Origin: Patescibacteria group bacterium
GTDB lineage: Bacteria; Patescibacteriota; Minisyncoccia; Phycocordibacterales; UBA9973
Assembly: GCA_038061755.1 (NCBI GenBank)
Contig: JBBTYN010000002.1
Span: 79,312-143,311, forward strand
Reading direction: 5' to 3'
DNA: 64,000 nucleotides
The notes under the pieces were generated by a model. The model worked only from the letters and a program-made list of their open reading frames with translations. It was not told the DNA's origin and made no database searches. Both the position numbers and the translations under genes were made by a program. Within the stretch, counting starts at the first letter, position 1, and the number at the start of each line of letters is the position of its first letter. Below, one piece after another: positions 7,795-54,795 of this stretch.

Positions 7795-10161
7795 ATGTTT
7801 TACAAACACAACGATAACTACACAGTCGAGAGCGTCACTTCTGGCCATCCGGACAAAATCTGTGACCAGATATCAGATGCTATTTTAGATGCATATTTAA
7901 CTTTGGACCCAAAGAGTCGTGTCGCCGTGGAGACCTTTGGCGGTCATGGCAAGCTTGTAATTGGTGGAGAAGTCACCTCGACAGGAAAAGTGGACTACAT
8001 AAAAATCGCCCGTGATGTTTATCGCAAAATTGGTTACACAGATGAGCTCGAAATCTCTGCACACATCGTCACTCAATCCCCCGACATCGCTCAGGGAGTA
8101 GATACAGGCGGAGCTGGAGACCAAGGATGCCTCAAAAAAGGTACCCTTGTAAGAACTAAAAGAGGGTTAATCGCAATACAAGAAATTGTAAAGGGAGATT
8201 ATGTTGCTACCCCATACGGTTGGCGTAAAGTACTCAGAGCTATGATGACCGGTAGAAAAAAAATTGTAGAAGTAGTTTCCGCCGACGGAATGGCATTAGA
8301 ATGCACACCAGATCACAGAATATTGTGCTACGACCGCGAAGGAGCCACGTATTGGAAAGAAGCAGCTTCATTAGAAAAAGGTGATTTTATGTGTACGCTT
8401 AAACCGCAGGAAATTGATGCTGATTTTTTTGTGCAGTCACAAATCCCTCGTGAAAAATTTTTTAGCAAATACAACCATAAAATTTTCGGGCCAGAAGAAT
8501 TGATTTTTAATCATGACGTCGCCTACATTGCGGGAGAATTAATAGGAGATGGATATGTTGCGAGTCCTTATTTAATGGATTTAGCGTTTGGTAATAATCG
8601 TGAGCACGCCGTTATGGTACAAGATGTTTGTAATAAATTTATGCCAGAACAATGGAGGCTAATCGATAATGGTAGTAATGTATGTCTAAAAATTGATTCC
8701 GTTTTGGTTAGAAAACATTTCGAAAATTTTGGTATTACATATGCGAAAGCGCCCGAAAAAGAAACCCCACGAGCTGTCTTCGTTTCCCCGCCAGAAGTTA
8801 TAAAAGGTTATTTAAGAGGACTTTTTGATAGCGATGGAACTATTATTATAAATACGGGGAGAAAAAAAGAAAACATCAGGATTCGTCTTGGTTCTTCATC
8901 TCTTCGACTATTGCGCGAAACCCAATTATTGTTGCATGATTTTGGAATAAAATCTACAATCATTCTTAACACAGCCAAGGGAATGCCAGTTGGAAAAAAG
9001 GGGAAGTTTGGGAAAATATATTATTCACAGCACCAACACTACGTGCTTTCCTTGGTAGGTTTTGAAAGTTATCAAAAATTCTGCAAAGAAATCAGTTTTA
9101 GTGATAAGAAAAAACAGGAACGTGCCAAGATGTATTTAGAAAAATGTAAAACACAGCCAAAAAATTCACGTGGCGTATACTTAATACCTCACCCCAAAAA
9201 AGACGAACTTATAGAAGAATCAAGACTTGGCTGTGAATTCCCCTTTGCAGTTAGCGTGTTTAAAAACATAGTAGACAGAAAAGAAATTACAGAAGTTTAC
9301 GATCTTGAAATAGAAGGAATACATATGTTTTCAGCAAATGGAATTATAGTTCATAATTCCATGTACGGATTCGCTACGGATGAGACACCTGAATTTTTAC
9401 CCAAGGGCGTAGTCCTCGCACATAAACTCGCAAAACGTTTAGAAGAATTAAGGAACAATGGAGAAATCAAATGGTTACGCCCCGATGGCAAAACACAAGT
9501 CACTTATACGAATGGTGAACTGAATACCGTATTAGTAAGTACGCAACATACACCAGAAGTCACACCAGAAGAAATTAAAAAAGAAATTACTGAAAAAATT
9601 ATTCTGCCTTTACTCACCGACAAGGAAAAAAGTTTGGCCTGTCCCGTTAGAGATCGCGAGGGCTCGCAGCGTGTTCCCAGCTCTAATGGGATAAAGATTC
9701 TGGTAAACCCCACGGGAAAATTTATCCAAGGTGGTTTCGAAGCAGATACAGGATTAACTGGCCGCAAAATAATGGTAGATACTTATGGTGGACTCATCCC
9801 CCACGGCGGTGGATGTTTCTCAGGAAAAGATGCCACAAAGGTGGACCGCTCAGGCGCATATATGGCTCGCTACGTGGCGAAAAGCCTCGTTGCAGGTGGT
9901 TATGGTAAAGAAGTGCTCGTATCTGTAGCCTATGCTATCGGTATGGCTGAACCACTGATGATAGAAGCGATTAACGAAAAAGGGAAAGATTTATCAAAAA
10001 TCGTCCGCCAAAATTTTGATTTTAAACCGCTTGCAATAATAAAAAAACTGAAACTTCAAAAGCCAATCTACGAGCAAACTGCCACCTATGGTCATTTCGG
10101 CAAAAAAAATCTGCCGTGGGAAAAAATTGAAAAGATAAAAACTACTGCTTTTTTTGGCTAG
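7795..10161 (+). CDS. metK: S-adenosylmethionine synthetase interrupted by an intein
   Basis: Exteins have GHPDKICDQISDAILDA, GGAGDQG | SMYGFATDETPE, NPTGKFIQGG, GLTGRKIMVDTYGG and GAYMARYVAKS. A 410-aa insertion separates GDQG from MYGF. Confidence 0.9.
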   Translation: MFYKHNDNYTVESVTSGHPDKICDQISDAILDAYLTLDPKSRVAVETFGGHGKLVIGGEVTSTGKVDYIKIARDVYRKIGYTDELEISAHIVTQSPDIAQGVDTGGAGDQGCLKKGTLVRTKRGLIAIQEIVKGDYVATPYGWRKVLRAMMTGRKKIVEVVSADGMALECTPDHRILCYDREGATYWKEAASLEKGDFMCTLKPQEIDADFFVQSQIPREKFFSKYNHKIFGPEELIFNHDVAYIAGELIGDGYVASPYLMDLAFGNNREHAVMVQDVCNKFMPEQWRLIDNGSNVCLKIDSVLVRKHFENFGITYAKAPEKETPRAVFVSPPEVIKGYLRGLFDSDGTIIINTGRKKENIRIRLGSSSLRLLRETQLLLHDFGIKSTIILNTAKGMPVGKKGKFGKIYYSQHQHYVLSLVGFESYQKFCKEISFSDKKKQERAKMYLEKCKTQPKNSRGVYLIPHPKKDELIEESRLGCEFPFAVSVFKNIVDRKEITEVYDLEIEGIHMFSANGIIVHNSMYGFATDETPEFLPKGVVLAHKLAKRLEELRNNGEIKWLRPDGKTQVTYTNGELNTVLVSTQHTPEVTPEEIKKEITEKIILPLLTDKEKSLACPVRDREGSQRVPSSNGIKILVNPTGKFIQGGFEADTGLTGRKIMVDTYGGLIPHGGGCFSGKDATKVDRSGAYMARYVAKSLVAGGYGKEVLVSVAYAIGMAEPLMIEAINEKGKDLSKIVRQNFDFKPLAIIKKLKLQKPIYEQTATYGHFGKKNLPWEKIEKIKTTAFFG
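8128..9357 (+). mobile_element. Intein with LAGLIDADG homing-endonuclease domain, inserted in metK after the GAGDQG motif
   Basis: It begins with Cys (CLKKGTLV...) and ends ...GIIVHN, followed by Ser. The two LAGLIDADG motifs are YIAGELIGDGYV and LRGLFDSDGTII. Length is 1230 nt (410 aa), and the flanking extein sequence is contiguous MetK. Confidence 0.8.
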
Positions 10162-18716: not shown

Positions 18717-18827
18717 GCGGTCATATTTGGTGGTCTTTAGACATAAATGATTAATGGTCATATTTGGTGGTTTTTAGACATAGATAATTTGCGGTCATAT
18801 TTGGTGGTCTTTGTACATACATAAAAA
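18717..18827 (+). repeat. Three degenerate tandem repeats of about 37 bp, each a partial copy of the 5' half of the downstream tRNA-Gly
   Basis: The units are gcggtcatatttggtggtctttagacataaatgattaat, ggtcatatttggtggtttttagacatagataattt and gcggtcatatttggtggtctttgtacatacataaaaa. Each begins with the tRNA 5' end GCGGTCAT and resembles its D-arm. Confidence 0.6.
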
Positions 18828-18898
18828 GCGGTCATGGTTTAGTGGTAGAACACGTCCTTGCCAAGGATGAGACGAGAGTTCGATTCTCTCTGGCCGCA
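18828..18898 (+). tRNA. tRNA-Gly (anticodon GCC)
   Basis: Cloverleaf with acceptor GCGGTCA/TGGCCGC (one G-U pair), D-loop AGTGGTA, anticodon loop TTGCCAA and T-loop TTCGATT. Confidence 0.8.
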
Positions 18899-23281: not shown

Positions 23282-25465
23282 GTGGATACAAACGAACAGC
23301 ATCTAAAGGGTCTAAATAGTGAACAAAAAAGGGCGGCGCTTCATATGAAGGGACCACTTTTAATTATTGCCGGAGCAGGCGCTGGAAAAACAAAAACAAT
23401 TACGCATCGAATTGTAAATCTGATAAAACAGGGAGTGTCTCCTGATAAAATTTTGGCAGTAACATTCACCAATAAAGCTGCCAAAGAAATGCGAGAGAGA
23501 ATTATCGGTGCAATATCATTATATGATAGTAAAAATGCAGGACAAAAAATAAACAGAGAAGTGGATTTGCTTTCGCGGGGTGTCTCGCAGGCTGACGAGC
23601 CGAGAGGCAGCGCTCCATCAGCAGATGGAGACAGCGACCCCGTGAAAGTAGAATCCATTTCTCTGTCCGAAATACCTTTTGTGTCTACTTTTCACTCTCT
23701 TGGAGTTTATATAATAAAAGAAAATGCCAAACTATTAGGATTAACACGATATTTTACTATTTTAGACGAAGGAGATGCGACAACTCTTATTAAAAATATT
23801 TTAAAAGAGCTCAGCATAGATCCTAAACAATATGATCCAAAAAAAATAAAAAATATCATCTCGCGAGAAAAAGGAAAATTTATGCATTTGGCAGACTATG
23901 CAGAGAGGGAAGAAGGTGGCGCAAGTGCTATAGGGAAAATAGTAGCGCAAGTTTGGAATTTATATGAAAAACAAAAAATGAAAGAAAATTCGCTGGATTT
24001 TGATGATTTACTTTTAAAAGCAACAAAATTACTAAAAGAAAATGAGAAAATCAGAAAAATTTATCAAAACAAATGGGAATATATACACGTGGATGAATAT
24101 CAAGACACAAATGAAGTACAATATCTAATGTCAAAATTACTAACGAGTGCTGAAAGAAATATTTGCGTGGTTGGGGACGCTGACCAGAATATTTATTCTT
24201 GGCGTGGAGCCAATTTAAAAAACATTTTAAGTTTTGAAAAAGATTATCCAAATGCAAAAATAATCTTATTGGAACAAAATTACCGGTCTACAAAAAATAT
24301 TTTGGAGGCGGCAAATGAGGTAATTAAAAAGAATAAATATAGACCAGATAAAAATTTATTTACAAAAAATATAGAAGGTGAAAAAATAGGACTATATGAA
24401 TCCCTAGACGAAACTGACGAAGCTGAATTCGTCGCTACAAAAATTCTAGAAATCACGGACAATTTCGGAAAGGATGTTGTTTTGAAAAGCATTGCGCAGG
24501 CTGACGAGCCGAGCATAGCAAATTTTCAGCAGAAAATTATGTGCGGTTTTCAAAATAATATCCTTTCGGAAATTGCTATCCTTTACCGCGCGAATTTCCA
24601 ATCTCGCGCGCTTGAAGAAGCGATGCTCAGATACAATATCCCTTATCAAGTTTTAGGTATTAAATTTTTTGAAAGAAAAGAAATCAAAGACACTCTCGCA
24701 TATTTACGCGCAGCATTAAATCCTGATAGTTTGTCTGATATAAAAAGAATAATAAATTTCCCTGCCCGAGGTATCGGAAAAGTGACTTTGCTGAAAATTT
24801 TTGCTAATCAAAAAGAAACTTTACCAATAAAAATGCAAATAAAAATTAATAATTTTTATAAAACCTTAGAAGAAATAAAAGAAAAAATTACGAACACAAA
24901 AGTTTCGGAAGTAATAAAATTTGTAATAAAAAAATCTGGAATTGAAACAGAACTTTCTTCTGGCACCGAAGAAGACATAGAAAGATTAGAAAACATCAAA
25001 GAACTTGCCACCCTAGCGCTCAAATATGACAATCTAGAAAATGGAACAGGAGTAGAAAAACTTTTAGAAGACGCCTCTCTTGTCTCAGATCAAGATTCTT
25101 TAATGATAAATGTCTCGACCAAAGTCGGGACCCCGACAGGGGTCGGGGGGGTAAAATTAATGACTGTACATGCATCAAAAGGACTTGAGTTTGAATATGT
25201 TTTTATTACAGGATTAGAAGATGGACTTTTTCCACACCAAAGGCAAAATGAAAGCAAAACAAATGAAGATAGTGAGGAAGAACGAAGGCTTTTCTATGTA
25301 GCGCTTACTCGCGCTCGGAGAAAATTATTTTTATCCTTTGCAAATTTCCGCACCATTTTTGGCTCTCGTAACATAAATACACCATCAGAATTTATCAGCG
25401 ATATTCCTGCAGATTTATTAAAAAAAGAAGGTGAAATTAGCGGAATAAAGACAATTTACCTATAA
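23282..25465 (+). CDS. uvrD: ATP-dependent DNA helicase UvrD/PcrA (carrying three GC-rich in-frame insertions)
   Basis: Motifs GAGAGKTKTITHRI, TFTNKAAKEMRER, TFHS, VDEYQDTN, GDADQNIYSWRGA, QNYRST, LYRANFQSR, GIKFFERKEIKD and VHASKGLEF. Confidence 0.9.
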   Translation: MDTNEQHLKGLNSEQKRAALHMKGPLLIIAGAGAGKTKTITHRIVNLIKQGVSPDKILAVTFTNKAAKEMRERIIGAISLYDSKNAGQKINREVDLLSRGVSQADEPRGSAPSADGDSDPVKVESISLSEIPFVSTFHSLGVYIIKENAKLLGLTRYFTILDEGDATTLIKNILKELSIDPKQYDPKKIKNIISREKGKFMHLADYAEREEGGASAIGKIVAQVWNLYEKQKMKENSLDFDDLLLKATKLLKENEKIRKIYQNKWEYIHVDEYQDTNEVQYLMSKLLTSAERNICVVGDADQNIYSWRGANLKNILSFEKDYPNAKIILLEQNYRSTKNILEAANEVIKKNKYRPDKNLFTKNIEGEKIGLYESLDETDEAEFVATKILEITDNFGKDVVLKSIAQADEPSIANFQQKIMCGFQNNILSEIAILYRANFQSRALEEAMLRYNIPYQVLGIKFFERKEIKDTLAYLRAALNPDSLSDIKRIINFPARGIGKVTLLKIFANQKETLPIKMQIKINNFYKTLEEIKEKITNTKVSEVIKFVIKKSGIETELSSGTEEDIERLENIKELATLALKYDNLENGTGVEKLLEDASLVSDQDSLMINVSTKVGTPTGVGGVKLMTVHASKGLEFEYVFITGLEDGLFPHQRQNESKTNEDSEEERRLFYVALTRARRKLFLSFANFRTIFGSRNINTPSEFISDIPADLLKKEGEISGIKTIYL
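23574..23644. repeat. GC-rich palindromic insertion inside the uvrD CDS, sharing the 19-bp core CGCAGGCTGACGAGCCGAG with the 92-bp element
   Basis: cgcggggtgtctcGCAGGCTGACGAGCCGAGaggcagcgctccatcagcagatggagacagcgaccccgtg has terminal inverted repeats CGCGGGGTGTCTC / GAGACAGCGACCCCGTG. It encodes an extra ...SRGVSQADEPRGSAPSADGDSDPV... segment before the TFHS motif. Confidence 0.55.
24473..24564. repeat. 92-bp MITE-like palindromic element inserted in frame in uvrD (copy A); identical to copy B in ksgA
   Basis: gatgttgttttgaaaagcattgcgcaggctgacgagccgagcatagcaaattttcagcagaaaattatgtgcggttttcaaaataatatcct has TIRs AGGATGTTGTTTTGAAAAGC... / ...GGTTTTCAAAATAATATCCT and is flanked by the direct repeat TTCGGAAA. 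It encodes VVLKSIAQADEPSIANFQQKIMCGFQNNIL. Confidence 0.7.
25112..25150. repeat. GC-rich palindromic patch inside uvrD (ACCCCGAC...GTCGGGG)
   Basis: gtctcgaccaaagtcgggaccccgacaggggtcggggggg encodes STKVGTPTGVGG just before the conserved LMTVHASKGLEF motif. GC content is far above the local background. Confidence 0.4.
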
Positions 25466-25474
25466 TTAAGAAAA

Positions 25475-27016
25475 ATGAATATTTTTAACAAGCAAACATT
25501 ATATATATTAAGTTCATTCCTTGCTGGTTTTTCTGTAATGACCATAGAACTTATTTCAGGAAGAATAGTAGCTCCAATAATAGGGTCTTCGGTTTTTACT
25601 TGGACATCTGTAATAGGAATAACTTTATTAGGACTCTCCATCGGTAGTTATGTTGGTGGCCAAATTGCAGATAAAACTGAAGGAAATAAATCACTTCCTC
25701 TAGTGTTCCTTTTATCATCAATCTTAGTTTCATTAATTCCAGTATTGGCAGCAAATACAAATTTTATTACAGATTCTTCCGATTCAATCTTGAAATTAAA
25801 TTTATATCTATCAATTTATTTATTCTTACTTCCAACATTGGCAATAGGACTTATTCAACCAATAATTCTTAAAAAATTTGCTAATGATTTTTCAAAAATT
25901 GGCAGTGAATATGGCATATTATCGTTTGCCTGGTCATCTGGTGGCATATTCGGTGTATTTTTAACAGGATTTTTTTTCATATCAAATATTGGAAGCATGG
26001 AAACAATTTGGTTAATGTCTCTAATTCTATTCTTAGTAGGAGGAATTTTGGCAATAAAAGATAAAAAAATAATTTTACTTTTCATAATAACAATGCTTGT
26101 TGTGCCAAATTTTCTTTATTTTACACAACAAAAAATACTAAATCCAAAAATAATATTTCAAAAAGAAACTGATTACTATAATGCTAGAGTTATTGATGCA
26201 TATCTTCCCGGATATGGAGATTCCCGAATACTCAATTTAGATTTTGATTTTCATAGTATAGAAACCAAAAAAGTGGTTGAGTATTACCCAGAGATATATC
26301 CAATTTTTGCTAATTTAAAAACAAATATAAAAAATATTTTAGTAATAGGTGCTGGGGCATATACTCTACCAAAACATTTTAAAAATTATTATAAAGATGC
26401 AGATGTTTCTGTCGTTGAGCTAGATCCAGAAATAATTAATATAGGTAACGATTTTTTTGATCTTAAAAAATATAATATAAAAACAATAGTTGGAGACGCA
26501 AAAATTGTAATAAATAAAAATAAAGAAAAATATGATGTAATTTTTGGTGATGCTTATAATTCTTTTATATCTGTGCCTTGGTATCTCTTAACAGAAGAAT
26601 GGAACAACGAGATTAAAGAAAAATTAAATGAAAATGGAATTTATGCTATAAATTTTATAGGCTCGTTGTCTGGATCAAAATCAGAATTCACAAATAGTGT
26701 ATTGAGCACATTTAAAATAAGTTTCCCCAATTTTTATATTTTTGCATTTGGAAAAAATCCTGAATATACACAAAGCATAACATTGGTAGGTGTTAATGGA
26801 AGACTCCCAATAAGCGAAGGAGAGCTTTCCAAAAAATTATTGATAGGAGAAAATAGTTTTTTAGCAAATAAAATTATTCCTGTTATGTATTTTAAAGATT
26901 CAACTTCAATAATTTTAACAGATAATTTTTCACCAGTAGAAAAATTGATGGAATCAACAATAAAAAGTTATTTCCCAAAAAATTTATTCGAGTTTAAGAG
27001 TATTTTGTCAATATGA
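25475..27016 (+). CDS. Polytopic membrane protein fused to a spermidine-synthase-like (aminopropyltransferase-fold) domain
   Basis: About 7 N-terminal TM helices, then ILVIGAGAYTLPKHF...VSVVELDPEII...YDVIFGDAY (SAM-dependent spermidine-synthase-like motifs). Confidence 0.7.
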   Translation: MNIFNKQTLYILSSFLAGFSVMTIELISGRIVAPIIGSSVFTWTSVIGITLLGLSIGSYVGGQIADKTEGNKSLPLVFLLSSILVSLIPVLAANTNFITDSSDSILKLNLYLSIYLFLLPTLAIGLIQPIILKKFANDFSKIGSEYGILSFAWSSGGIFGVFLTGFFFISNIGSMETIWLMSLILFLVGGILAIKDKKIILLFIITMLVVPNFLYFTQQKILNPKIIFQKETDYYNARVIDAYLPGYGDSRILNLDFDFHSIETKKVVEYYPEIYPIFANLKTNIKNILVIGAGAYTLPKHFKNYYKDADVSVVELDPEIINIGNDFFDLKKYNIKTIVGDAKIVINKNKEKYDVIFGDAYNSFISVPWYLLTEEWNNEIKEKLNENGIYAINFIGSLSGSKSEFTNSVLSTFKISFPNFYIFAFGKNPEYTQSITLVGVNGRLPISEGELSKKLLIGENSFLANKIIPVMYFKDSTSIILTDNFSPVEKLMESTIKSYFPKNLFEFKSILSI

Positions 27017-27897
27017 AGGCAAAAAAATCTCTCGGACAAAATTTCTTAAAGTCAGAAATAGCTCTTCGTAAAATTATTGAAGCGGGAGAAATAAAATCTA
27101 CTGATGTAATTTTAGAAATAGGGCCAGGCAAGGGAGCGTTAACCTCTAAGCTTCTAGAAAAATCTGGAATAGTTATCGCTGTTGAAAAAGATCGTGAACT
27201 TTTTGAATTTTTAAAAATAAAATTTGCAGAAGCAATTACAGAAAAAAAATTAATTTTAATAAATGATGATATTCTAAAATTTATAGAGGATGTTGTTTTG
27301 AAAAGCATTGCGCAGGCTGACGAGCCGAGCATAGCAAATTTTCAGCAGAAAATTATGTGCGGTTTTCAAAATAATATCCTCAATAAATTTAACTACAAAA
27401 TCATTGCCAATATTCCTTACAACATTACCGGCGCAATTTTAAAAAAGTTTTTAACAGCAGAAAATCAACCCGAAAGTATGATATTAATGGTTCAGCATGA
27501 AGTAGCCAAAAGAATCATAGGAAGGGGAAGCAACCCTTCGACTCCGCTCAGGGTAAAGGAAAGTATTCTCTCTATTTCAGTCAAGGCTTACGGGGAGGCA
27601 AAGATGATAATGAAGGTTGATAAAAGATATTTCTCACCAAGTCCTAAAGTTGATTCGGCTATTATCGCCATAAAAAATATTTCTAGGAAGAATTTTGAAG
27701 GTGTCAAACACCCGATGTTTGACAATTTTGAAGAGAAATTCTGGGAAATAGTAAAAACTGGCTTTGCACATAAGAGAAAAAAGCTTTCTTCAAACTTAAA
27801 AGTTTTAAAATTAGAAAAAACCGACCTCCTAGAAAAGTTGGGAAACAAAAGAGCGGAAGATTTAACTCTTTCGGACTGGCTTGCATTAACTAAATAG
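27013..27897 (+). CDS. ksgA: 16S rRNA (adenine1518/1519-N6)-dimethyltransferase KsgA/RsmA (carrying an in-frame 92-bp element)
   Basis: LGQNFL, EIGPGKGALT, NIPYNITGAIL and F.P.PKVDSAII motifs. There is an extra 30-aa block between DILKFIE and NKFNYKIIANIPYN. Confidence 0.85.
   Translation: MKAKKSLGQNFLKSEIALRKIIEAGEIKSTDVILEIGPGKGALTSKLLEKSGIVIAVEKDRELFEFLKIKFAEAITEKKLILINDDILKFIEDVVLKSIAQADEPSIANFQQKIMCGFQNNILNKFNYKIIANIPYNITGAILKKFLTAENQPESMILMVQHEVAKRIIGRGSNPSTPLRVKESILSISVKAYGEAKMIMKVDKRYFSPSPKVDSAIIAIKNISRKNFEGVKHPMFDNFEEKFWEIVKTGFAHKRKKLSSNLKVLKLEKTDLLEKLGNKRAEDLTLSDWLALTK
27289..27380. repeat. 92-bp MITE-like palindromic element inserted in frame in ksgA (copy B)
   Basis: Identical over 92 bp to 24473-24564. 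The terminal inverted repeats extend to GAGGAT...ATCCTC. The reverse-frame ORFs 24280..24516 and 26994..27332 both start MLGSSACAMLFKTT because of this repeat. Confidence 0.7.
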
Positions 27898-33730: not shown

Positions 33731-34306
33731 ATGGAAGACACAACAGATTTATTACAAATAAAAATTGAGAAGGCAAAAATGCAATTGCCAGAAGAAACCC
33801 AAAACGCAATCAATGCTGTTGATTATAAAGCGGTTATTTTAGAAATGAGAAAAAAAAAAGGATATAGTTTTGAACAATTAGGAGACCTAGAAACTGAAAC
33901 AGAATTATTGCTTTGCGGGCTTCTTAGTCCAGAAAATTATCCAAAAGAATTAGGAAACAGGATGCATCTTTCAGGTAATGAAGTTAATGAATTAGTAAAA
34001 GAAATGAATAATCGTGTTTTTGCAAAAATAAAAGAAAACTTGGTAAAAAGGACAGAAGAAAAAAAAGAAGAAAATGATGATATGCAAATATTACATTCTG
34101 CTGGAATTGAGATTATTCCTGAAAAAAAAGAATTAACAACACCCACGCCTCCAATCTTGGCACAAAAATTATCCGGTTATGTTAAAAATGAAGTAGTGGA
34201 AACAGAACATTCTCTAGAAAATATCACAAAAATAAGTATGCCAACTCCACCAATTACTAAAACAAGCAAAATAACTATAGATCCATATAGAGAAATTCCT
34301 GAATAA
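33731..34306 (+). CDS. Hypothetical acidic protein (paralog of the previous gene)
   Basis: MEDTTDLLQIKIEKAKMQLPEETQNAINAV... No recognisable family. Confidence 0.45.
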   Translation: MEDTTDLLQIKIEKAKMQLPEETQNAINAVDYKAVILEMRKKKGYSFEQLGDLETETELLLCGLLSPENYPKELGNRMHLSGNEVNELVKEMNNRVFAKIKENLVKRTEEKKEENDDMQILHSAGIEIIPEKKELTTPTPPILAQKLSGYVKNEVVETEHSLENITKISMPTPPITKTSKITIDPYREIPE

Positions 34307-34312
34307 CAAAGC

Positions 34313-34391
34313 AATTACGAATTATCAATTACGAATTACGAATTAAAAAAACAAAAAAATTAAAAATCAGTAATTACGAATTACGAATTTG
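34313..34391 (+). repeat. Array of AATTACG heptamer repeats (direct orientation) upstream of the four-helix-bundle gene
   Basis: The array reads aattacgaattatcaattacgaattacgaattaaaaaa...agtaattacgaattacgaattt. Confidence 0.7.
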
Positions 34392-34751
34392 AAAGAAAAT
34401 ATTATACAACAAAAAAGTTATGTATTTGCAATAAAAATTATTGAATTATATAAATACTTAATTGGAACAAAAAAAGAATTTATTTTATCAAAACAACTTT
34501 TGAGAAGTGGAACGTCAATAGGAGCAAACATAGAAGAAGCATTAGGTGGTCAATCAAGAAAAGATTTTATCTCAAAATTATCTATAGCCTATAAAGAAGC
34601 TCGAGAAACAAAATACTGGCTCTCTTTATTAAGGGAAGCAAAATATATGACTCAAGAAGAATTGAATCCTGTTTTTGATAATTGTGAGGAAATATTAAAA
34701 ATAATAGGTAAAATTCAAAAAACATCAAAAGAAAATGGGGTTAATTCGTAA
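34389..34751 (+). CDS. Four-helix-bundle protein (TIGR02436 / 23S rRNA IVS protein / DGR Avd-like family)
   Basis: 120 aa with ...SKQLLRSGTSIGANIEEALGGQSRKDFISKLSIAYKEARETKYWLSLL..., matching the sQl.RsatSI.aNIaEG...s.kdF...l.iA..e..Et..wl.l motif. TTG start. The gene lies inside heptamer-repeat arms. Confidence 0.75.
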   Translation: MKENIIQQKSYVFAIKIIELYKYLIGTKKEFILSKQLLRSGTSIGANIEEALGGQSRKDFISKLSIAYKEARETKYWLSLLREAKYMTQEELNPVFDNCEEILKIIGKIQKTSKENGVNS

Positions 34752-34790
34752 TTGATTATATAATGTTCTATAATGTAGTAGTGGGTTGCT

Positions 34791-34826
34791 AATTCGTAAT
34801 TCGTAATTCGTAATTTATAATTGATT
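34791..34826 (+). repeat. Inverted-orientation heptamer array (AATTCGT x3) plus conserved leader aatttataattgattcatATG
   Basis: Reverse complement of the upstream AATTACG array. Together the arrays form the arms of a hairpin whose loop is the 4HB gene. A second partial copy (aattcgtaattgat) overlaps the 4HB stop codon at 34743-34756. Confidence 0.7.
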
Positions 34827-34829
34827 CAT

Positions 34830-35273
34830 ATGCAGTTTAAAGTTCCACAATTTTTAGACATAGAAGACAAAATATTCGGCCCTTTCACTTTTAGGGAATT
34901 TGTTTATTTGGCTGGTGGAGCAGGCTTGTGTTTTATTCTTTATAAATTGCTAGGTCTTATTTTAGGAGCCATACCAATTTTAATTGTGGCAGGATTTTCG
35001 CTCGCTCTTACTTTTTATAAACCAAACAATAAACCATTCCTTAACATAATTGAATCTAGTTTTAAATACTTTACCAAAAACAAACTTTATATTTGGAAAA
35101 AAGGCAAAAGCCACGCTTCAATGGACGGTGTGCGACATGATTTCACTAAATCAGATATAAACAAAGTTCAAATAATACATTCTAGTAATTTACAATTAAA
35201 TGGAAGCAAGTTACGGGACTTAGCTTGGAGTTTGGATGTATTAGATTTAAGTAAACAACAGGGAAAAAATTAA
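34830..35273 (+). CDS. PrgI/VirB3-like small membrane protein
   Basis: MQFKVPQFLDIEDKIFGPFTFREFVYLAGGAGLCFILYKLL..., a two-TM hairpin architecture typical of the PrgI family, immediately upstream of the VirB4 genes. The ATG start is at 34830. Confidence 0.5.
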   Translation: MQFKVPQFLDIEDKIFGPFTFREFVYLAGGAGLCFILYKLLGLILGAIPILIVAGFSLALTFYKPNNKPFLNIIESSFKYFTKNKLYIWKKGKSHASMDGVRHDFTKSDINKVQIIHSSNLQLNGSKLRDLAWSLDVLDLSKQQGKN

Positions 35274-35282
35274 GAATTAGCA

Positions 35283-35378
35283 ATTACGAATTACGAATGA
35301 AAAATACAGATTACAAATTAAAAGATTATGAGTTGCGAATTAAATTCGTAATTCGCAATTCGTAATTTAAAATTGATT
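35283..35378 (+). repeat. Intergenic hairpin made of heptamer repeats (direct AATTACG arm, 43-nt loop, inverted AATTCGT arm) plus the conserved leader before the next ATG
   Basis: aattacgaattacgaatg...(loop)...aattcgtaattcgcaattcgtaatttaaaattgattcaaATG. This is the same architecture as the arms flanking the 4HB gene, but with an empty loop. Confidence 0.7.
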
Positions 35379-35381
35379 CAA

Positions 35382-36020
35382 ATGGCCTTAAAAGCAAAAG
35401 CAACTCAAGAATTTGTGCCAATCAAGGAAGTTCGCGATGGAATAGTCGTGCTAAAAAACGACGAATTACGGGCTATCGTGCTGGCTAATTCTGTAAATCT
35501 ATCTCTAAAATCTTCTGATGAACAACAAGCAACAATAATGCAATTTCAAAATTTTCTTAATACCTTAGATTTTTCTGTGCAAATATCAATCCAATCAAGA
35601 AGGCTAAACATTAGGCCTTATCTTTTGCTTTTGGAAGACAGAATAAAGGTTCAAAATGAACCCCTTTTAAAATTACAAACTAGAGAATATATAGAATTTA
35701 TTAAAAATTTTACTGATTCAGTGGCAATAATGACAAAAAACTTTTTTGTAGTAGTTCCATACACCCATACTACTTTAAAATCAGACTCTGGAATACTGGA
35801 TAAAATATTTTCAAGAAAAAATAAAGAGGAGATAAAAGTTGCAAAACAAATAGATTTTGAAGAAAAAAGGTCTCAATTGGAAGAAAGAGTAGCTGTTATT
35901 CAGCAAGGACTCTCCCGTTGTGGTATAAATTCAGCTCAACTTGGTACTGAAGAAGTAGTGGAAGTATTTTATAAAGTTTTCAACCCGGGGGAAATAGAAG
36001 GAAAAATTAAATTAGAATAA
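35382..36020 (+). CDS. VirB4/TrbE N-terminal-domain protein (split from the ATPase)
   Basis: EFVPIKEVRDGIVVLKNDELRAIVLANSVNLSLKSSDEQQATIMQFQNFLNTLDFSVQI resembles the VirB4 N-domain. The ORF ends 28 nt before the ATPase ORF. Confidence 0.5.
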   Translation: MALKAKATQEFVPIKEVRDGIVVLKNDELRAIVLANSVNLSLKSSDEQQATIMQFQNFLNTLDFSVQISIQSRRLNIRPYLLLLEDRIKVQNEPLLKLQTREYIEFIKNFTDSVAIMTKNFFVVVPYTHTTLKSDSGILDKIFSRKNKEEIKVAKQIDFEEKRSQLEERVAVIQQGLSRCGINSAQLGTEEVVEVFYKVFNPGEIEGKIKLE

Positions 36021-39365: not shown

Positions 39366-40712
39366 ATGTCAAAAAGAAACTTTATACTTTTAATAATAAT
39401 CATAGTTATCGCATTAATTGCAATTTTTGGATATTTTTATTTTAACCAAGGAACAAATACACCAGGAGGAGATGACACAGGTACAAACTTTATTTCACAA
39501 TTTTATCCATTTAGAAATAACAACAATGCAACAAAACCTACCACCACAACGCCTCCCATTGATGTCTCAGACTACCAGCCACCAATGGATGTAGTAACTG
39601 TAAAATTAAAAAAAGTTTCAAGCATGCCTATTGCAGGCTTTACTGTATTTTCTAAAGAAAGGTTAAAAGATGTGCCCATAGTAACACCGGTCTTAGAAAC
39701 CGATGCCACTACCGAAAATCCTGCTCCTAAGATAACCAAGCCGACTCCACCACTAACCGAATTTATGCCAGCCTTGAGGTATGTGGAAAGAACTACGGGA
39801 AATATTTACCAGACTTTTGCAGATAAAATAGAAGAAAGAAAATTTTCCACGACTATTATTCCTATGGTTTATGAAGCATTTTTTGGAAACAAGGGAAATT
39901 CTGTAGTTATGAGATATTTAAAGGGAGATGCTAAAACTATTATAACTTTTGTTGGGACTCTACCAAAAGAATTTCTTGGCGCAGACACCACTGACAATAA
40001 TGAAATAAAAGGAACGTTCCTTCCAGAAGACACAGAAGATGTAAGCCTATCAAGCGATAATCTTACTCTATTTTATCTTTTCAACTCTGGAGACAATATA
40101 ATTGGCACAACTTTAAATTTAGTAAATAATAAAAAAGTTCAAGTTTTTGATTCACCATTTACTGAGTGGTTATCATTATTCCCAAATAATAAAATGATTA
40201 CTTTTACCACCAAACCTTCGTTTCTAATACCTGGATATATGTATGCGCTAAATCCTACTAATAAAAATTACAATTTCCATGAAATCTTAGGCAATATAAA
40301 CGGGCTTACCACTCTCACCAGCTCTGATGGAAAATTAGTTCTTTATAGTAATGATAATTTATCACTCAACATTTATCACATAAATACAAAAGTTTCTGAT
40401 GCCCTAGTTGTAAAAACATTAGCAGAAAAATGTGTTTGGAATAAAAATAGTGATGCTATTTATTGCGGAGTACCAAAATCTATATCTGGCACTCAATATC
40501 CAGATAGTTGGTATCAAGGAGAAGTTTCTTTTTCAGACCAAATTTGGAAAATAGATATTAAAACTAAAAATGCAACAATGATTGCAGATCCAGCCACTAT
40601 GGTTGGCGGGGAAGATATCGATAGCATAAAACTTGCGCTAGATGATGGAGAAAACTATTTATTTTTTGTAAATAAAAAAGATTCTTTCCTTTGGGAACTT
40701 GAGCTTAAATAA
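39366..40712 (+). CDS. Hypothetical membrane-anchored secreted protein (448 aa)
   Basis: N-terminal TM LLIIIIVIALIAIFGYFYF followed by a T/P-rich linker. It is the last gene of the cluster. Confidence 0.5.
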   Translation: MSKRNFILLIIIIVIALIAIFGYFYFNQGTNTPGGDDTGTNFISQFYPFRNNNNATKPTTTTPPIDVSDYQPPMDVVTVKLKKVSSMPIAGFTVFSKERLKDVPIVTPVLETDATTENPAPKITKPTPPLTEFMPALRYVERTTGNIYQTFADKIEERKFSTTIIPMVYEAFFGNKGNSVVMRYLKGDAKTIITFVGTLPKEFLGADTTDNNEIKGTFLPEDTEDVSLSSDNLTLFYLFNSGDNIIGTTLNLVNNKKVQVFDSPFTEWLSLFPNNKMITFTTKPSFLIPGYMYALNPTNKNYNFHEILGNINGLTTLTSSDGKLVLYSNDNLSLNIYHINTKVSDALVVKTLAEKCVWNKNSDAIYCGVPKSISGTQYPDSWYQGEVSFSDQIWKIDIKTKNATMIADPATMVGGEDIDSIKLALDDGENYLFFVNKKDSFLWELELK

Positions 40713-41199
40713 CTCCCACGTATTTAATAACAACTCGACGATCACGCCCGATGCCTACAGATTCAGTCTTTAGGTCACTTGATTCAGACAAAAATTCATG
40801 AATAATTCTTCGCTCAAAAGAGGACATTGGATCAACTTCTATATTAGACTTAAAATACCTAGCTCTTTCTGACATCATATGAGCTACTGCGCGAATATTT
40901 TCAACATGTTTTTTTTGAAAACCATTTATATCAATAATAATTGCTGTCCCAAAGCAAGGCTTAGGGGATTCCCCTAAGCCTTGCTTTGGGGTTGTTTTTG
41001 ATTCTATAATCCTATGAGCAAGGTAGTTTAATGCGTGCAAGCCATCACCATCGTGTCCAATAAAAAAATGCGGCTCACTAACTTCCACAGAAACCCATAT
41101 ATTTTTAGGTTCATCATCAATAATTGAAATTTTATTTAATTTTACTGTAGTTTTTTCAATTAATTCTTTTATTAAATTTTGAATTTCTTCTTTTTCCAT
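40705..41199 (-). CDS. jag: Jag/KhpB (KH + R3H domain RNA-binding protein), with an in-frame palindromic insertion in the linker
   Basis: Jag_N-like start, KH segment (FFIGHDGDGLHALNYLAHRI) and an R3H C-terminus (SSFERRIIHEFL...GIGRDRRVVI). Confidence 0.8.
   Translation of the reverse strand: MEKEEIQNLIKELIEKTTVKLNKISIIDDEPKNIWVSVEVSEPHFFIGHDGDGLHALNYLAHRIIESKTTPKQGLGESPKPCFGTAIIIDINGFQKKHVENIRAVAHMMSERARYFKSNIEVDPMSSFERRIIHEFLSESSDLKTESVGIGRDRRVVIKYVGVI
40948..40990. repeat. Perfect 20-bp-stem, 3-nt-loop GC-rich hairpin inside the jag CDS
   Basis: CCCAAAGCAAGGCTTAGGGG-att-CCCCTAAGCCTTGCTTTGGG encodes ...TPKQGLGESPKPCFGT... on the minus strand, in frame. Confidence 0.65.
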
Positions 41200-42724: not shown

Positions 42725-44068
42725 ATGGATATAAATACAAAACAGTTGTGGAAAAATTGTTTGCTAAAAATTGAATCTGGTATGTCTAAGGCAAATTTTA
42801 GCACATGGTTTAGAAACACGTCTATTGCAAAAGAAGAAAATGGGGTTATTTATATAGGGGTGCCAAATGAATTTGTCCGTGATTGGCTTATAAATAAATA
42901 TCATAAACTTATAACTAAAACCATAGCAGAAAATTATGAAAATATGCGCGCTGTAGAATATATAATTATAAAAATAGAAAACCCTAAACAAGAAATAATA
43001 ATAAACGAAACCATAGAAAAAGAGCTACCCTTAAGAGATTTATACATAAACCCGGAAAACAATTTGAACCCACGTTACCATTTTAATTCTTTTATTGTTG
43101 GAACTTTTAATGAACTCGCATACGCAGCATCACAGGCAATAATAGAATCACCAGGAACAAAATATAATCCATTTTTTATTTATGGAGGTACCGGTCTTGG
43201 AAAGACTCATCTAATTCAAGCTGTAGGAAATTCAATAAAAGATAAGTATCCTGATAAAAAAGTGCATTATATGACTTTAGAAAAGTTCGCAACAGATTTT
43301 ATAAACTCTCTTCAAGGGAATAAAGCAAATTCTTTTAAAGAAAAATATCGCAAATATGATCTTTTAATTATAGATGATATTCAATTTATTGGTAAAATGG
43401 AAAAAATTCAAGAAGAACTTTTTCATACATTTAATACTTTTTATGAAAATAATAAACAAATTATTTTTTCTTCCGACAAACACCCTAATTATATTCCAGA
43501 ATTAGCAGATCGTTTAAAATCCCGCTTTGCCGCAGGAATGATTGTGGATGTTACTGAACCAGAATATGAATCTCGTCTCGCAATTATAAAAGTAAGGCTT
43601 CGTGAACTTAATATTGTTTTAGAAGAGGATTTAATTGAATATGTTGCAACATCTATACAAGGAAATATTCGTGAACTTGAAGGAAGTTTAAATCTTATTA
43701 TTTGCCAATATCGCCTTAAAAACAAAGCCCCAACACTCACAGAAGTTAAAAACCTACTAAAAAACAGTATGAAACCAAAAAAGAATATGGCAATAAAAGA
43801 TGTTGTAAAAATTGTGGCCGAATATTATAAATTAGAAGAAATGTCTATTTATGAAAAAACTAGAAAAAAAGAAATAGTTAAAACTAGACAAATTATAATG
43901 TATCTGCTTCGTGAAGATTTTAGTGTCTCTTATCCATTAATAGGACAAAAATTAGGTGGAAAAGACCATACAACAGTGATGCATTCATGTGTAAAAATTA
44001 AAGAAGATTTAAAAAATGACCCACAATTAATACAGGAATTAGAACAAATAAGAATTATGTTTAAATAA
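42725..44068 (+). CDS. dnaA: Chromosomal replication initiator DnaA
   Basis: N-terminal LWKNCL..., AAA+ motifs NPFFIYGGTGLGKTHL and LLIIDDIQF, and a C-terminal DNA-binding domain (KTRKKEIVKTRQIIMYL...LIGQKLGGKDHTTVMHS). Confidence 0.95.
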   Translation: MDINTKQLWKNCLLKIESGMSKANFSTWFRNTSIAKEENGVIYIGVPNEFVRDWLINKYHKLITKTIAENYENMRAVEYIIIKIENPKQEIIINETIEKELPLRDLYINPENNLNPRYHFNSFIVGTFNELAYAASQAIIESPGTKYNPFFIYGGTGLGKTHLIQAVGNSIKDKYPDKKVHYMTLEKFATDFINSLQGNKANSFKEKYRKYDLLIIDDIQFIGKMEKIQEELFHTFNTFYENNKQIIFSSDKHPNYIPELADRLKSRFAAGMIVDVTEPEYESRLAIIKVRLRELNIVLEEDLIEYVATSIQGNIRELEGSLNLIICQYRLKNKAPTLTEVKNLLKNSMKPKKNMAIKDVVKIVAEYYKLEEMSIYEKTRKKEIVKTRQIIMYLLREDFSVSYPLIGQKLGGKDHTTVMHSCVKIKEDLKNDPQLIQELEQIRIMFK

Positions 44069-44213
44069 TTACAAATAATTATTAGATAGTTGTTAGACTT
44101 AAATTAAAAAATAAATTTAATAAAATACTAATATAAAACAACATAAAATGTATTTATACACTTATTAACACAACTAATATTATTAATAAATTAAATATAT
44201 AATATATAAACAT
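44069..44213. other. Extremely AT-rich dnaA-dnaN spacer, candidate DNA-unwinding element of oriC
   Basis: 145 bp of well over 85% A+T with box-like 9-mers (ttatacact). Its position between dnaA and dnaN is typical for a bipartite origin. Confidence 0.4.
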
Positions 44214-45311
44214 ATGAAACTAGAATGCTCTGTGGAAAAAATTAAAAACGCTGTTTCTCAAGTGGAAAGAATTACTGGTAAAAATTTAACTTTGCCAATA
44301 TTGAATTCAATTTTATTAATTGCTTCTGGTAATTCATTAAAACTTCGATCTACAAATTTAAATCTTGGTATTGAAATTGAAATTCCAGTAAAAATGGAAA
44401 AAGAAGGAACTCTTGCTATTTCTGGTTCTATATTAAATGCTGTTTTTTTAAATATTTCTCAAAATGAGAATGTATTTTTTGAAAATATAGATGAGAATTT
44501 ATTAATTAAGACAAAAAAAAGTAAAATAAAACTAAAAAGCCAACCTTATGAAGATTTTCCAACAATACCAAAAGTTATTGGAAAAAGTTTTGAAATAGAA
44601 TCAACTAAATTAATTGATGGTATAAAAGCGGTTTATTATAGTTCTTCTGTTTCAGACATAAAACCTGAAATTTCAAGTGTTTTTATGTATACCAATGAGG
44701 ATAATCTAATTTTTGTTTCTACGGACTCTTTTAGATTGGCTGAAAAAAAGGTTAAAGTAAAGGGATTGGAGGAAATTTCAGGAATTCTTTTACCATATAA
44801 AAATATAGGAGAAATATTAAAAGTTTTTGGGGAGTTTAAGGGTATTATAAAAGTGTGTTTTAATAAAAATCAAATTTCCTTTTCTTCTGATAATGTTTAT
44901 TTAACTTCACGAATTATTGATGGAATTTTTCCAGATTATAGGCAAATTATTCCAAAAGATTTTTTGACTGATGTGGTGGTACTTAAGCAAGATTTATTAA
45001 ATGCATTAAAATTATCAAATGTTTTTTCAGATAAATTTAATCAAGTTAATTTAAAAATTTCACCAAAAGAAAAAGTCTTTGAACTTTCTTCTTCAAACAA
45101 TGATATTGGAGAAAATAAAACATATCTAGATGCTGTCCTTAAAGGAGAAATTATTGAATTAAGTTTTAATTATAAATATTTTTTAGATTGTTTTCAATCA
45201 ATCAACACTGACAGTGTTTCTATAAAACTGTCTGGAGTTTCTCGTCCAATAGTTATTTCTGCTGTTTCTGATTCATCTTTTACTTATCTTATAATGCCGA
45301 TGAATAGGTAG
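44214..45311 (+). CDS. dnaN: DNA polymerase III beta sliding clamp
   Basis: 365 aa with a three-domain clamp pattern (MKLECSVEKIKNAVSQVERI...), immediately after dnaA. Confidence 0.9.
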   Translation: MKLECSVEKIKNAVSQVERITGKNLTLPILNSILLIASGNSLKLRSTNLNLGIEIEIPVKMEKEGTLAISGSILNAVFLNISQNENVFFENIDENLLIKTKKSKIKLKSQPYEDFPTIPKVIGKSFEIESTKLIDGIKAVYYSSSVSDIKPEISSVFMYTNEDNLIFVSTDSFRLAEKKVKVKGLEEISGILLPYKNIGEILKVFGEFKGIIKVCFNKNQISFSSDNVYLTSRIIDGIFPDYRQIIPKDFLTDVVVLKQDLLNALKLSNVFSDKFNQVNLKISPKEKVFELSSSNNDIGENKTYLDAVLKGEIIELSFNYKYFLDCFQSINTDSVSIKLSGVSRPIVISAVSDSSFTYLIMPMNR

Positions 45312-54758: not shown

Positions 54759-54795
54759 TATATTAAAGTATATCCTAAGTGGTATAATTTATACA

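Follow-up and report, generated by a model that had tools for sequence, protein, structure and literature searches.

In-frame palindromic DNA repeats in housekeeping genes of Patescibacteria: a widespread, probably selfish family that resembles Rickettsia palindromic elements in behavior

Rickettsia palindromic elements (RPEs), designated RPE-1 to RPE-8, were reportedly described by Ogata and colleagues in 2000, and Bertels and Rainey are said to have paired REPINs, inverted doublets of repetitive extragenic palindromic (REP) units forming a hairpin of ~100 nt with conserved arms, with the REP-associated tyrosine transposases (RAYTs), which are Y1 enzymes of the IS200-like kind. A REP is a hairpin of 20-40 nt, one end of which bears an unpaired GTAG or CGTC tag; REPs are occasionally found in frame within genes, and both they and the RPEs are discussed in PMC3733652. 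In this study, we analyzed a stretch of 64,000 nucleotides (hereafter, the window; positions 79,312 to 143,311 of contig JBBTYN010000002.1, assembly GCA_038061755.1) from a bacterium of the Patescibacteria, or Candidate Phyla Radiation (CPR), in which an earlier note had pointed to a repeat shared by a uvrD and a ksgA gene. The repeat belongs to a large, apparently undescribed family spread through the Paceibacteria/Parcubacteria branch of Patescibacteria. This family is probably a non-autonomous, RPE-like selfish palindromic DNA repeat element that is carried in frame inside housekeeping genes.

Based on a base-for-base comparison across the window, positions 24471-24564 and 27287-27380 form an exact direct repeat. 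Its 94 nt begin 2 nt further 5' than the pair 24473-24564 and 27289-27380 that the earlier note had rightly called identical. Both copies lie on the coding strand of unbroken open reading frames (ORFs); all features of the three copies given below are on the + strand. The first host gene (23282-25465, +, 727 aa) is uvrD/pcrA-like, of the UvrD/PcrA family, and homologs of its product carry UvrD-helicase/UvrD_C domains; the second (27013-27897, +, 294 aa, PF00398) is rsmA/ksgA. The full palindrome spans 24460-24575 (116 nt) in uvrD, directly before AILYRANFQSR (site 2), and 27277-27390 (114 nt, 38 codons) in ksgA, between DILKF and YKIIANIPYNIT. The repeat length had been given as a multiple of three, which holds for neither 92 nor 94. 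These two identical copies define type A. A third, diverged copy, type B, occupies site 1 of the same uvrD gene, before PFVSTFHSLG (23553-23666, 114 nt). A motif search placed the 18-nt core GCAGGCTGACGAGCCGAG at 24496-24513, 23587-23604, and 27312-27329, three window matches against 0 expected. Similarly, a covariance model detected exactly three copies in the window, at 99.4 bits (uvrD site 2), 104.1 bits (ksgA), and 95.4 bits (uvrD site 1), with the next-best match at 15 bits.

In the type-A copy of uvrD, the 5' arm of the outer stem P1, AGGATGTTGTTTTGAAAA (24471-24488), pairs with TTTTCAAAATAATATCCT (24547-24564), and a locus-specific extension, in which 24460-24470 pairs with 24565-24575, continues the stem. 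Hairpin 1 (GGCT-GACG-AGCC, 24499-24510) lies inside the core, flanked by unpaired GCA and GA. Hairpin 2, identified by folding and covariation, consists of a 7-bp stem with an AGCA loop (AATTTTC-AGCA-GAAAATT, 24521-24538); its equivalents are located at 27337-27354 in ksgA and at 23613-23630 in the type-B copy (CTCCATC-AGCA-GATGGAG). The coding-strand RNA of the 94-nt repeat folds at -36.1 kcal/mol (z = -5.25), compared with -23.1 kcal/mol for the complement, and the type-B copy folds at -68 kcal/mol (z = -8.7). The peptide, the internal hairpins, and the GC-rich core reported in the earlier note are thus all present, and the predicted insert-encoded peptides of the window copies are VVLKSIAQADEPSIANFQQK and GVSQADEPRGSAPSADGDSDPVK. 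When the window was searched for 16 ortholog peptide families, none was present besides types A and B, and a metagenome scan for the P1 arm of the window copies returned one further contig only.

To define the extent of the family, we scanned one genome per species for the exact 18-nt core, which gives a lower bound. At least 117 loci carry the exact core, and about 110 among those listed are metagenome-assembled genomes of Patescibacteria/CPR. Together with the third window copy, these loci answer the search for further copies that the earlier note, which knew of two copies only, had proposed. The CPR hosts among the matches listed include Nomurabacteria, Paceibacterota, Zambryskibacteria, Kaiserbacteria, Minisyncoccia, and others, whereas six high-GC, non-CPR core matches lack the surrounding structure and look like chance occurrences. 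The covariance model identified 111 copies in 0.7 Mb of fetched loci, with some 8-kb loci holding two or three. In addition to types A and B, the family comprises a type C and diverged relatives, and the core is extremely conserved across lineages of 31-58% GC. The flanks AAACTCGTCGCAGGCGTAC...GTATGCCAAGAAAGAGTTT are common to about 15 genomes, but no two of these agree in the sequence beyond the element. A conserved locus acting as a master gene was therefore rejected; what these genomes share is a longer subfamily, not a syntenic gene. Carriage by phages or plasmids was also rejected, as the exact core had no match in 2.9 million viral contigs and blastn against phage and plasmid records gave no match. 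Finally, literature searches, including searches for the literal core and peptide strings, returned no description of the element, consistent with the novelty proposed in the earlier note.

The consensus fold of 106 aligned copies is a three-way junction formed by a long outer stem (P1), a short helix (P2), and hairpins 1 and 2. The full palindromes range from 76 to 145 nt (median 109). Hairpin 1 (GGCU-GACG-AGCC) has 4 bp and a GACG loop and is flanked by unpaired GCA and GA, and the 7 bp of hairpin 2 end in a loop of AGCA or AGUA. Copies of one subtype have the inner part of P1 in common, while its outer part varies from locus to locus and still pairs with itself. The terminal inverted repeats proposed earlier therefore stand only in part: the window copies do have 18-bp complementary ends, but across the family the outer arms are locus-specific. 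Structural support is strong. Over the 27 pairs of the consensus, the fraction of cells that pair is 90.3%; it drops to 61% when columns are shuffled and to 35-53% when partners are slid. The covariation score is 0.745 compared with 0.21 in shuffles, none of 500 shuffles reaching the observed value. In particular, hairpin 2 is 99.1% paired over the 106 copies, with 42-67 double changes per pair, and P2 is 99.7% paired. Hairpin 1 is invariant in the core-selected set; in diverged copies its stem covaries (GCGC/GCGC, GGGC/GCCC, AGCT/AGCT) while the GACG loop is kept.

The pairing also differs between the two strands. The inner helices contain <1% G:U despite using all four Watson-Crick pairs, and for 86 of 109 copies the better fold is that of the core-sense strand, not of the complement. 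Since a folding model biases the G:U count, wobble in the arms was counted by an energy-free arm alignment. In the variable arms, G:T exceeds A:C by 80:31 (p = 3.7e-6) on the element's own strand, and this excess is seen in sense-ORF (18:2), antisense-ORF (16:3), and intergenic (46:26) copies. As a separate observation, the core-sense strand coincides with the locally C-rich strand in 54 cases versus 33 (p = 0.03), a weak replication-strand bias. Several known RNAs were considered and rejected for this fold. The core contains CUGACGAG, which recalls hammerhead and other small ribozymes, but the GAAA and stem layout do not fit; signal recognition particle RNA, RNase P RNA, tmRNA, and group II intron domain V did not fit by eye. 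Rfam searches gave no family match for any copy tested, neither across 18 loci nor in a search that admitted E up to 10, and hence no ribozyme or intron match in answer to the fold check for intron or self-cleaving structure suggested in the earlier note.

About one third of the copies (39 of 123) are located inside long open frames, and the rest lie outside. Every copy within an ORF leaves the host frame intact and has no stop codon in the frame that is read, and only three of the six frames are used: S1 (16 copies, ...SQADEPRGS...), A0 (16 copies, ...LPLGSSACETP...), and A1. Type B is stop-free in five of the six frames, yet every in-ORF type-B copy is read in S1 or A0, the type-B frames that give small, polar peptides; this restriction indicates that frame choice is filtered by what the protein tolerates. 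The hosts confirmed by Pfam are UvrD, TGT, TsaD, formyltransferase, class-V aminotransferase, pseudouridine synthase, peptide deformylase, and UvrB. Moreover, the same sites in uvrD, tgt, tsaD, and fmt are occupied in both orientations in different genomes, and the resulting peptides are unrelated, so conservation acts on the nucleotide sequence, not the peptide. The AlphaFold model of the window KsgA is confident overall (164 residues with a predicted confidence score, pLDDT, >= 90), and the insert is modeled as a loop between two confident strands, with pLDDT <50 at residues 101-121. Collectively, these data suggest that the inserts are read through and translated as a disordered loop and not spliced out, and a by-product is the best explanation of the peptide.

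To place the inserts in context, we aligned 120 orthologs each of UvrD and KsgA, as the earlier note had advised, and compared empty, footprint, and filled alleles directly at the DNA level. Three hot spots emerge: uvrD site 1, uvrD site 2, and the ksgA site. The UvrD orthologs share 69-100% identity with the window protein; of the 120, about 50 have no insert at site 1 and about 16 have none at site 2, and the occupied ones carry one to three tandem inserts from several families. The KsgA orthologs exhibit the same pattern of empty and variously filled sites, with type A at the ksgA site in many of them. The other insert families at the hot spots are also long hairpins with GC-rich branched centers in both orientations. 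The central proposal of the earlier note, a repeated palindromic element that was inserted and persists in frame in the manner of RPEs, is borne out by the close orthologs without inserts. At the precise position of the insert, empty alleles often retain a mini-palindrome or part of an arm, such as GTCGGC-TCC-GCCGAC (L118) and GGACAG-TGGC-CTGTCC (L131), which look like deletion footprints. Furthermore, nested copies sit in hairpin loops, and abutting pairs in opposite orientation occur. A further in-frame hairpin was observed in the window at 55750-55855, within polA (54679-57279, +), with 22-nt arms that are 91% complementary, a 62-nt spacer, a fold of -46.9 kcal/mol, a GC content of 0.49 (gene, 0.31), and the peptide ...QEPPDDYTRRHSHSVLEGQVLSGRSEDSSEYNHQGAQ...; by its appearance, it is a palindromic insert from another family.

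Turnover at the hot spots is evident between close lineages. The uvrD elements of the window and of L114 are identical over 94 of 94 nt, whereas the 300 nt on either side are 74-79% identical. The closest ksgA ortholog (L122, 74% amino acid identity) has a type-A copy at the same site that is identical at 88 of 91 positions and has different outer arms, while L114 and L121, which share the identical uvrD copy, carry a different family, type D, in ksgA. Because the ksgA site thus holds type A in one relative and type D in two others, its occupants are replaced from one close lineage to another. For the two identical copies of the window, the best explanation is recent copying between the uvrD and ksgA hot spots, by insertion or by gene conversion.

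The junctions were examined for target-site duplications (TSDs). The earlier note had interpreted a direct repeat at the uvrD copy, TTCGGAAA (24464-24471 and 24565-24572, spacing 101 nt), as a TSD. This repeat belongs to the palindrome itself, namely to the extension CAATTTCGGAA / TTCGGAAATTG, which is complementary at 10 of 11 positions, and if the element were removed with one TTCGGAAA copy, the conserved SEIAILYR would no longer be in frame. A flanking repeat of the TTCGGAAA type is absent from both the ksgA copy and the L114 ortholog, and a comparison of 106 copies with a mismatched-flank control detected no consistent duplication; the TSD was therefore rejected. A small excess of 4-5 nt flank repeats derives from GCGAG...CGAGCG flanks in some higher-GC genomes. 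In many copies from higher-GC genomes (for example L002, L015, L053, L090, and L093), ...GCGAG lies to the left and CGAGCG... to the right of the palindrome, brackets that could represent a preferred target motif or what is left of an earlier copy. In uvrD, conserved coding sequence of the host (S-E-I-A) makes up the 3' extension, and the 5' extension (N-F-G) is the inverted complement of it. In ksgA, the 5' side has the host codons K-F, which reappear in mirror image as N-K-F on the 3' side; in L114, where another host codon is present, the mirrored arm has changed along with it. This mirroring suggests that a palindrome extends into one host flank or is assembled from it.

With its conserved part in the center, locus-specific arms, no TSD, and no autonomous partner found, the family does not bear the signature of a MITE (a miniature transposable element with inverted repeats) that the earlier note had seen in it. 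As a selfish repeat, it would persist as follows. Copies would land in either orientation and be kept in intergenic DNA and in surface loops of housekeeping proteins; within ORFs, a copy would persist only if the inserted length, on balance, leaves the frame unchanged and if translation through it meets no stop and gives a small, polar, flexible peptide. For the copying itself, we tentatively suggest a replication-associated route via single-stranded hairpin DNA, by template switching, by an HUH/Y1 enzyme such as a RAYT-like protein, or by both. This route is favored over cut-and-paste transposition by a DDE enzyme because there is neither a TSD nor a conserved terminus, because the G:T/A:C asymmetry tracks the element's own strand in every context, and because locus-specific arm extensions pair with conserved host codons. 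The footprints at empty sites, the nested copies in loops, and the abutting inverted pairs point to the same route, as does a syntenic RAYT-like Y1 gene, present in single copy and widespread in these lineages, and the near absence of G:U from the inner helices fits arm-to-arm templating. The same hairpin chemistry would explain the deletion footprints, the palindromic extension into host flanks, and the nested or tandem copies at hot spots.

A broader version of this proposal, which we regard as rather doubtful, is that the family represents an unrecognized class of single-strand-DNA mobile hairpin, a T-shaped three-way junction with a central recognition module that would be mobilized in trans by a domesticated RAYT-like Y1/HUH protein of Paceibacteria, encoded in synteny, or by template switching and would integrate into hairpin loops. 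If true, it would account for the hot spots in essential genes, the orientation flips, the flank-copied arms, and the nested or tandem arrays; together with its sister families, such a class would be a major ongoing source of protein-length variation in CPR. A candidate enzyme was found by tblastn with approximate TnpA queries and then confirmed by Pfam. This candidate, from the element-bearing locus L089, is a Y1_Tnp protein of 222 aa that combines an HUH motif with a RAYT-like tyrosine motif. This protein has at least 2,974 homologs, the best 120 of which are 62-100% identical. Its single-copy gene lies directly downstream of the RNase R gene, in the order rnr -> Y1 | smc-like, rnc, nusB, in Kaiserbacteria and Paceibacterota (L123, L125, L126, L129, L130, L089). 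From this arrangement, it looks like a domesticated RAYT, a single-copy HUH transposase, and as a mobilizer it is a lead, not a finding. A cargo-bearing autonomous version was sought among interrupted copies and rejected, as one of the two interrupted copies (L098) proved to be truncated and the other (L105) to contain a nested insertion of 55 nt.

How the window acquired two identical copies has a rival explanation, in which ksgA already held an older type-A copy and gene conversion replaced its sequence with that of the uvrD copy, or the exchange ran the other way. We give this a little less than an even chance. It accords with the type-A copy already present at the ksgA site of L122, with the type-A inserts at this site in many orthologs, and with the identity tract, which stops exactly at the unit and gives way to locus-specific arms; the type-D occupants of L114 and L121 count against it and imply that outright replacement occurs. 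The available sequences do not distinguish conversion from re-insertion. By comparison, there is virtually no probability that the repeat is an ancestral UvrD/KsgA protein segment or domain, or an assembly or chimera artefact, for which nothing speaks beyond the identity itself. Many close orthologs have no insert, which refutes an ancestral domain; the same DNA occurs in intergenic positions and in reverse, where it encodes unrelated peptides; and the insert is an unstructured loop in the KsgA model. Assembly artefact, which the earlier note had named as a possible refutation together with an ancestral domain, is countered by more than 100 independent assemblies, by the insert-bearing KsgA protein recorded from 11 contigs, and by the identical 94-nt unit in the independent assemblies L114 and L121.

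Three further readings assign the element a function or remove it from the product. The very strong covariation of the three-way junction, the better fold of the core-sense strand, the G:U-type wobble enriched on one strand, and the core conserved across distant CPR lineages would all suit a structured RNA selected at the RNA level, for instance a small RNA gene or a motif that acts in cis in processing, stability, or regulation. A functional RNA in host transcripts is nevertheless unlikely, because in ORFs the element is antisense to the mRNA as often as sense, because among intergenic copies between co-directional genes (L001-L117) the core-sense strand, which folds better, runs antisense to the genes 22 times and sense 6 times (p = 0.004), and because the wobble asymmetry persists in antisense-ORF copies. 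Its presence varies among close orthologs, families replace one another at one site, inner helices almost without G:U are unusual for RNA, and no Rfam family matches. Quite improbable, too, is a DNA signal recognized by a protein in uptake, recombination, or replication restart and spread by biased uptake and homologous recombination. Uptake sequences are biased towards genome-maintenance and translation genes, and the present enrichment in such genes resembles that bias; the invariant core in both orientations across many genera and the element identical between genomes with far less similar flanks, as expected of recent horizontal replacement, also agree with a signal of this kind. However, the density is low relative to known uptake sequences (3 per 64 kb), the unit is an insertion of ~115 nt with covarying hairpins and not a short motif that arises by point mutation, and several unrelated families with different cores behave alike at the same hot spots. 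Finally, a stable GC-rich hairpin inside essential genes, together with inteins in the window MetK and in a UvrD ortholog, might indicate removal before or during expression, as a mini-intron, an intein-like peptide, or a translational-bypass element; the earlier note had held an intron- or intein-like excised element in reserve. This is very improbable: excision would impose no frame or stop-free constraint, whereas all in-ORF copies are frame-open, both orientations occur, and the insert of 30-40 aa has no intein motifs.

Several points weigh against a selfish mobile repeat, the reading that we prefer. The copy set was chosen by exact core match, so the invariance of the core is partly by construction. 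No mobilizing enzyme is linked to the family: a scan of the window proteins for transposases found none, no element copies flank the Y1 gene, and this gene lies within 8 kb of an element in 3 of ~117 loci compared with ~1.3 expected by chance, which is not significant. The identity of the two window copies could come entirely from gene conversion, and no de novo insertion was observed. In addition, retention in the mRNA and translation are deduced from frame statistics. The conservation of the core and the strand-asymmetric wobble exceed what a decaying selfish repeat needs, so that a host-level function of the DNA or RNA is conceivable. The antisense bias of the intergenic copies also weighs against the selfish reading.

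CPR/Patescibacteria genomes are tiny and gene-dense and are usually called poor in mobile DNA. Here, several structured palindromic families repeatedly occupy the same loops of uvrD, uvrB, ksgA, tgt, tsaD, fmt, def, and polA, with turnover between close relatives, and such elements would explain much of the unexplained length variation and the "low-complexity inserts" of CPR proteins. The repeats probably also break assemblies and confuse annotation and phylogenomic alignments. Beside the RPEs, they would constitute a second, independent, and far more diverse system for selfish DNA surviving in essential genes, and the conserved center, the one-strand asymmetry, and the co-resident RAYT-like enzyme make mobilization directly testable in vitro.

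The window contains other features of interest. The gene of the S-adenosylmethionine synthetase MetK (7795-10158, +) encodes an intein with a LAGLIDADG homing endonuclease (PF14890, PF14528), and the intein-bearing UvrD ortholog mentioned above is P0111 (1032 aa). Three tandem 37-nt repeats (GCGGTCATATTTGGTGGTCTTTAGACATA...) at 18717-18835 lie immediately upstream of a tRNA gene (18828-18898); each begins like the 5' end of this tRNA (GCGGTCAT.GTTTAGTGGT), as if by partial tRNA duplication. At 34300-35400, a gene for a 23S rRNA intervening-sequence protein (34389-34748, PF05635) and a PrgI-like gene are bracketed by direct and inverted arrays of AATTACGAATTACGAATT-type repeats (34309-34398, 34786-34842, 35263-35308, and 35340-35394); the region is part of a type-IV-secretion-like cluster. 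At 40948-40990, where two convergent ORFs (39366-40712, +; 40705-41199, -) adjoin, lies a perfect 21-bp palindrome, CCCAAAGCAAGGCTTAGGGGA / TCCCCTAAGCCTTGCTTTGGG; it has a weak covariance-model score of 15 bits and may be a bidirectional terminator. The cumulative GC skew reaches its minimum at ~19-21 kb, where the gene orientation also switches, and dnaA-dnaN is located at 42725-45308 (42-45 kb) with rnpA-yidC-jag upstream; the skew-inferred origin and dnaA may thus be ~22 kb apart.

Compared with known systems, the family is set apart from self-splicing introns, small ribozymes, and other Rfam families, since no covariance model matched any copy tested. Inteins comprise at least ~130 aa with splicing motifs at the N and C termini in one orientation, whereas the present inserts are 30-40 aa and occur in both; translational bypass, as in T4 gene 60 and the mitochondrial byps, imposes no frame or stop constraint, whereas these inserts appear to be held in frame and stop-free. 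The classical MITEs (Correia, ERIC, and elements derived from the insertion sequences IS630 or IS200) are likewise short, non-autonomous, dispersed inverted-repeat hairpins; here, however, there are no conserved terminal inverted repeats, no fixed TSD, and no related autonomous insertion sequence was found. Coding palindromes have been described in Nematomorpha mitochondria (PMC6649704). These and the GC-rich hairpin elements of other mitochondria share with the present family in-frame inverted repeats in AT-rich, reduced genomes with both arms translated, but they are mostly gene-specific, in contrast to one dispersed family with a conserved core in hundreds of genomes. In shape, the element recalls an inverted terminal repeat (ITR) of a parvovirus. 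The ITR of adeno-associated virus is a T- or Y-shaped terminal hairpin with flip and flop orientations that is recognized by an HUH enzyme. The likeness, which is structural only, is that single-stranded DNA of ~115-145 nt forms a long stem, within which are two small hairpins, and that two orientations exist; ITRs are the termini of a linear replicon, whereas these are chromosomal interspersed repeats.

The closest analogues in behavior are the RPEs and the intragenic REPs, although we claim an analogy and not membership. Similar to REPs and REPINs, the family consists of hairpin-forming, non-autonomous repeats without TSDs, and REPINs are of a similar size (~100 nt). The one-strand asymmetry fits single-strand recognition, and a single-copy, syntenic RAYT-like Y1 gene exists in these CPR lineages. 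The arms, in contrast, are variable, GACG (CGTC on the other strand) lies in the hairpin-1 loop and is not a terminal tag, and the Y1 gene is neither flanked by elements nor significantly linked to them. With regard to RPEs, we know of no dedicated transposase and no TSD. The present family resembles them as a dispersed palindromic repeat of ~100-150 nt that forms a stable hairpin, lies both in intergenic DNA and in frame in housekeeping ORFs whose orthologs lack the insert, yields a peptide that is a by-product on the protein surface, and resides in a reduced-genome, host-dependent bacterium. It differs in that it belongs to an unrelated phylum, the likeness claimed being one of behavior, and in that the center is conserved and branched as a three-way junction while the arms are locus-specific. 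Moreover, both orientations and several families recur here at the same hot spots, where tandem and nested copies and deletion footprints are evident.

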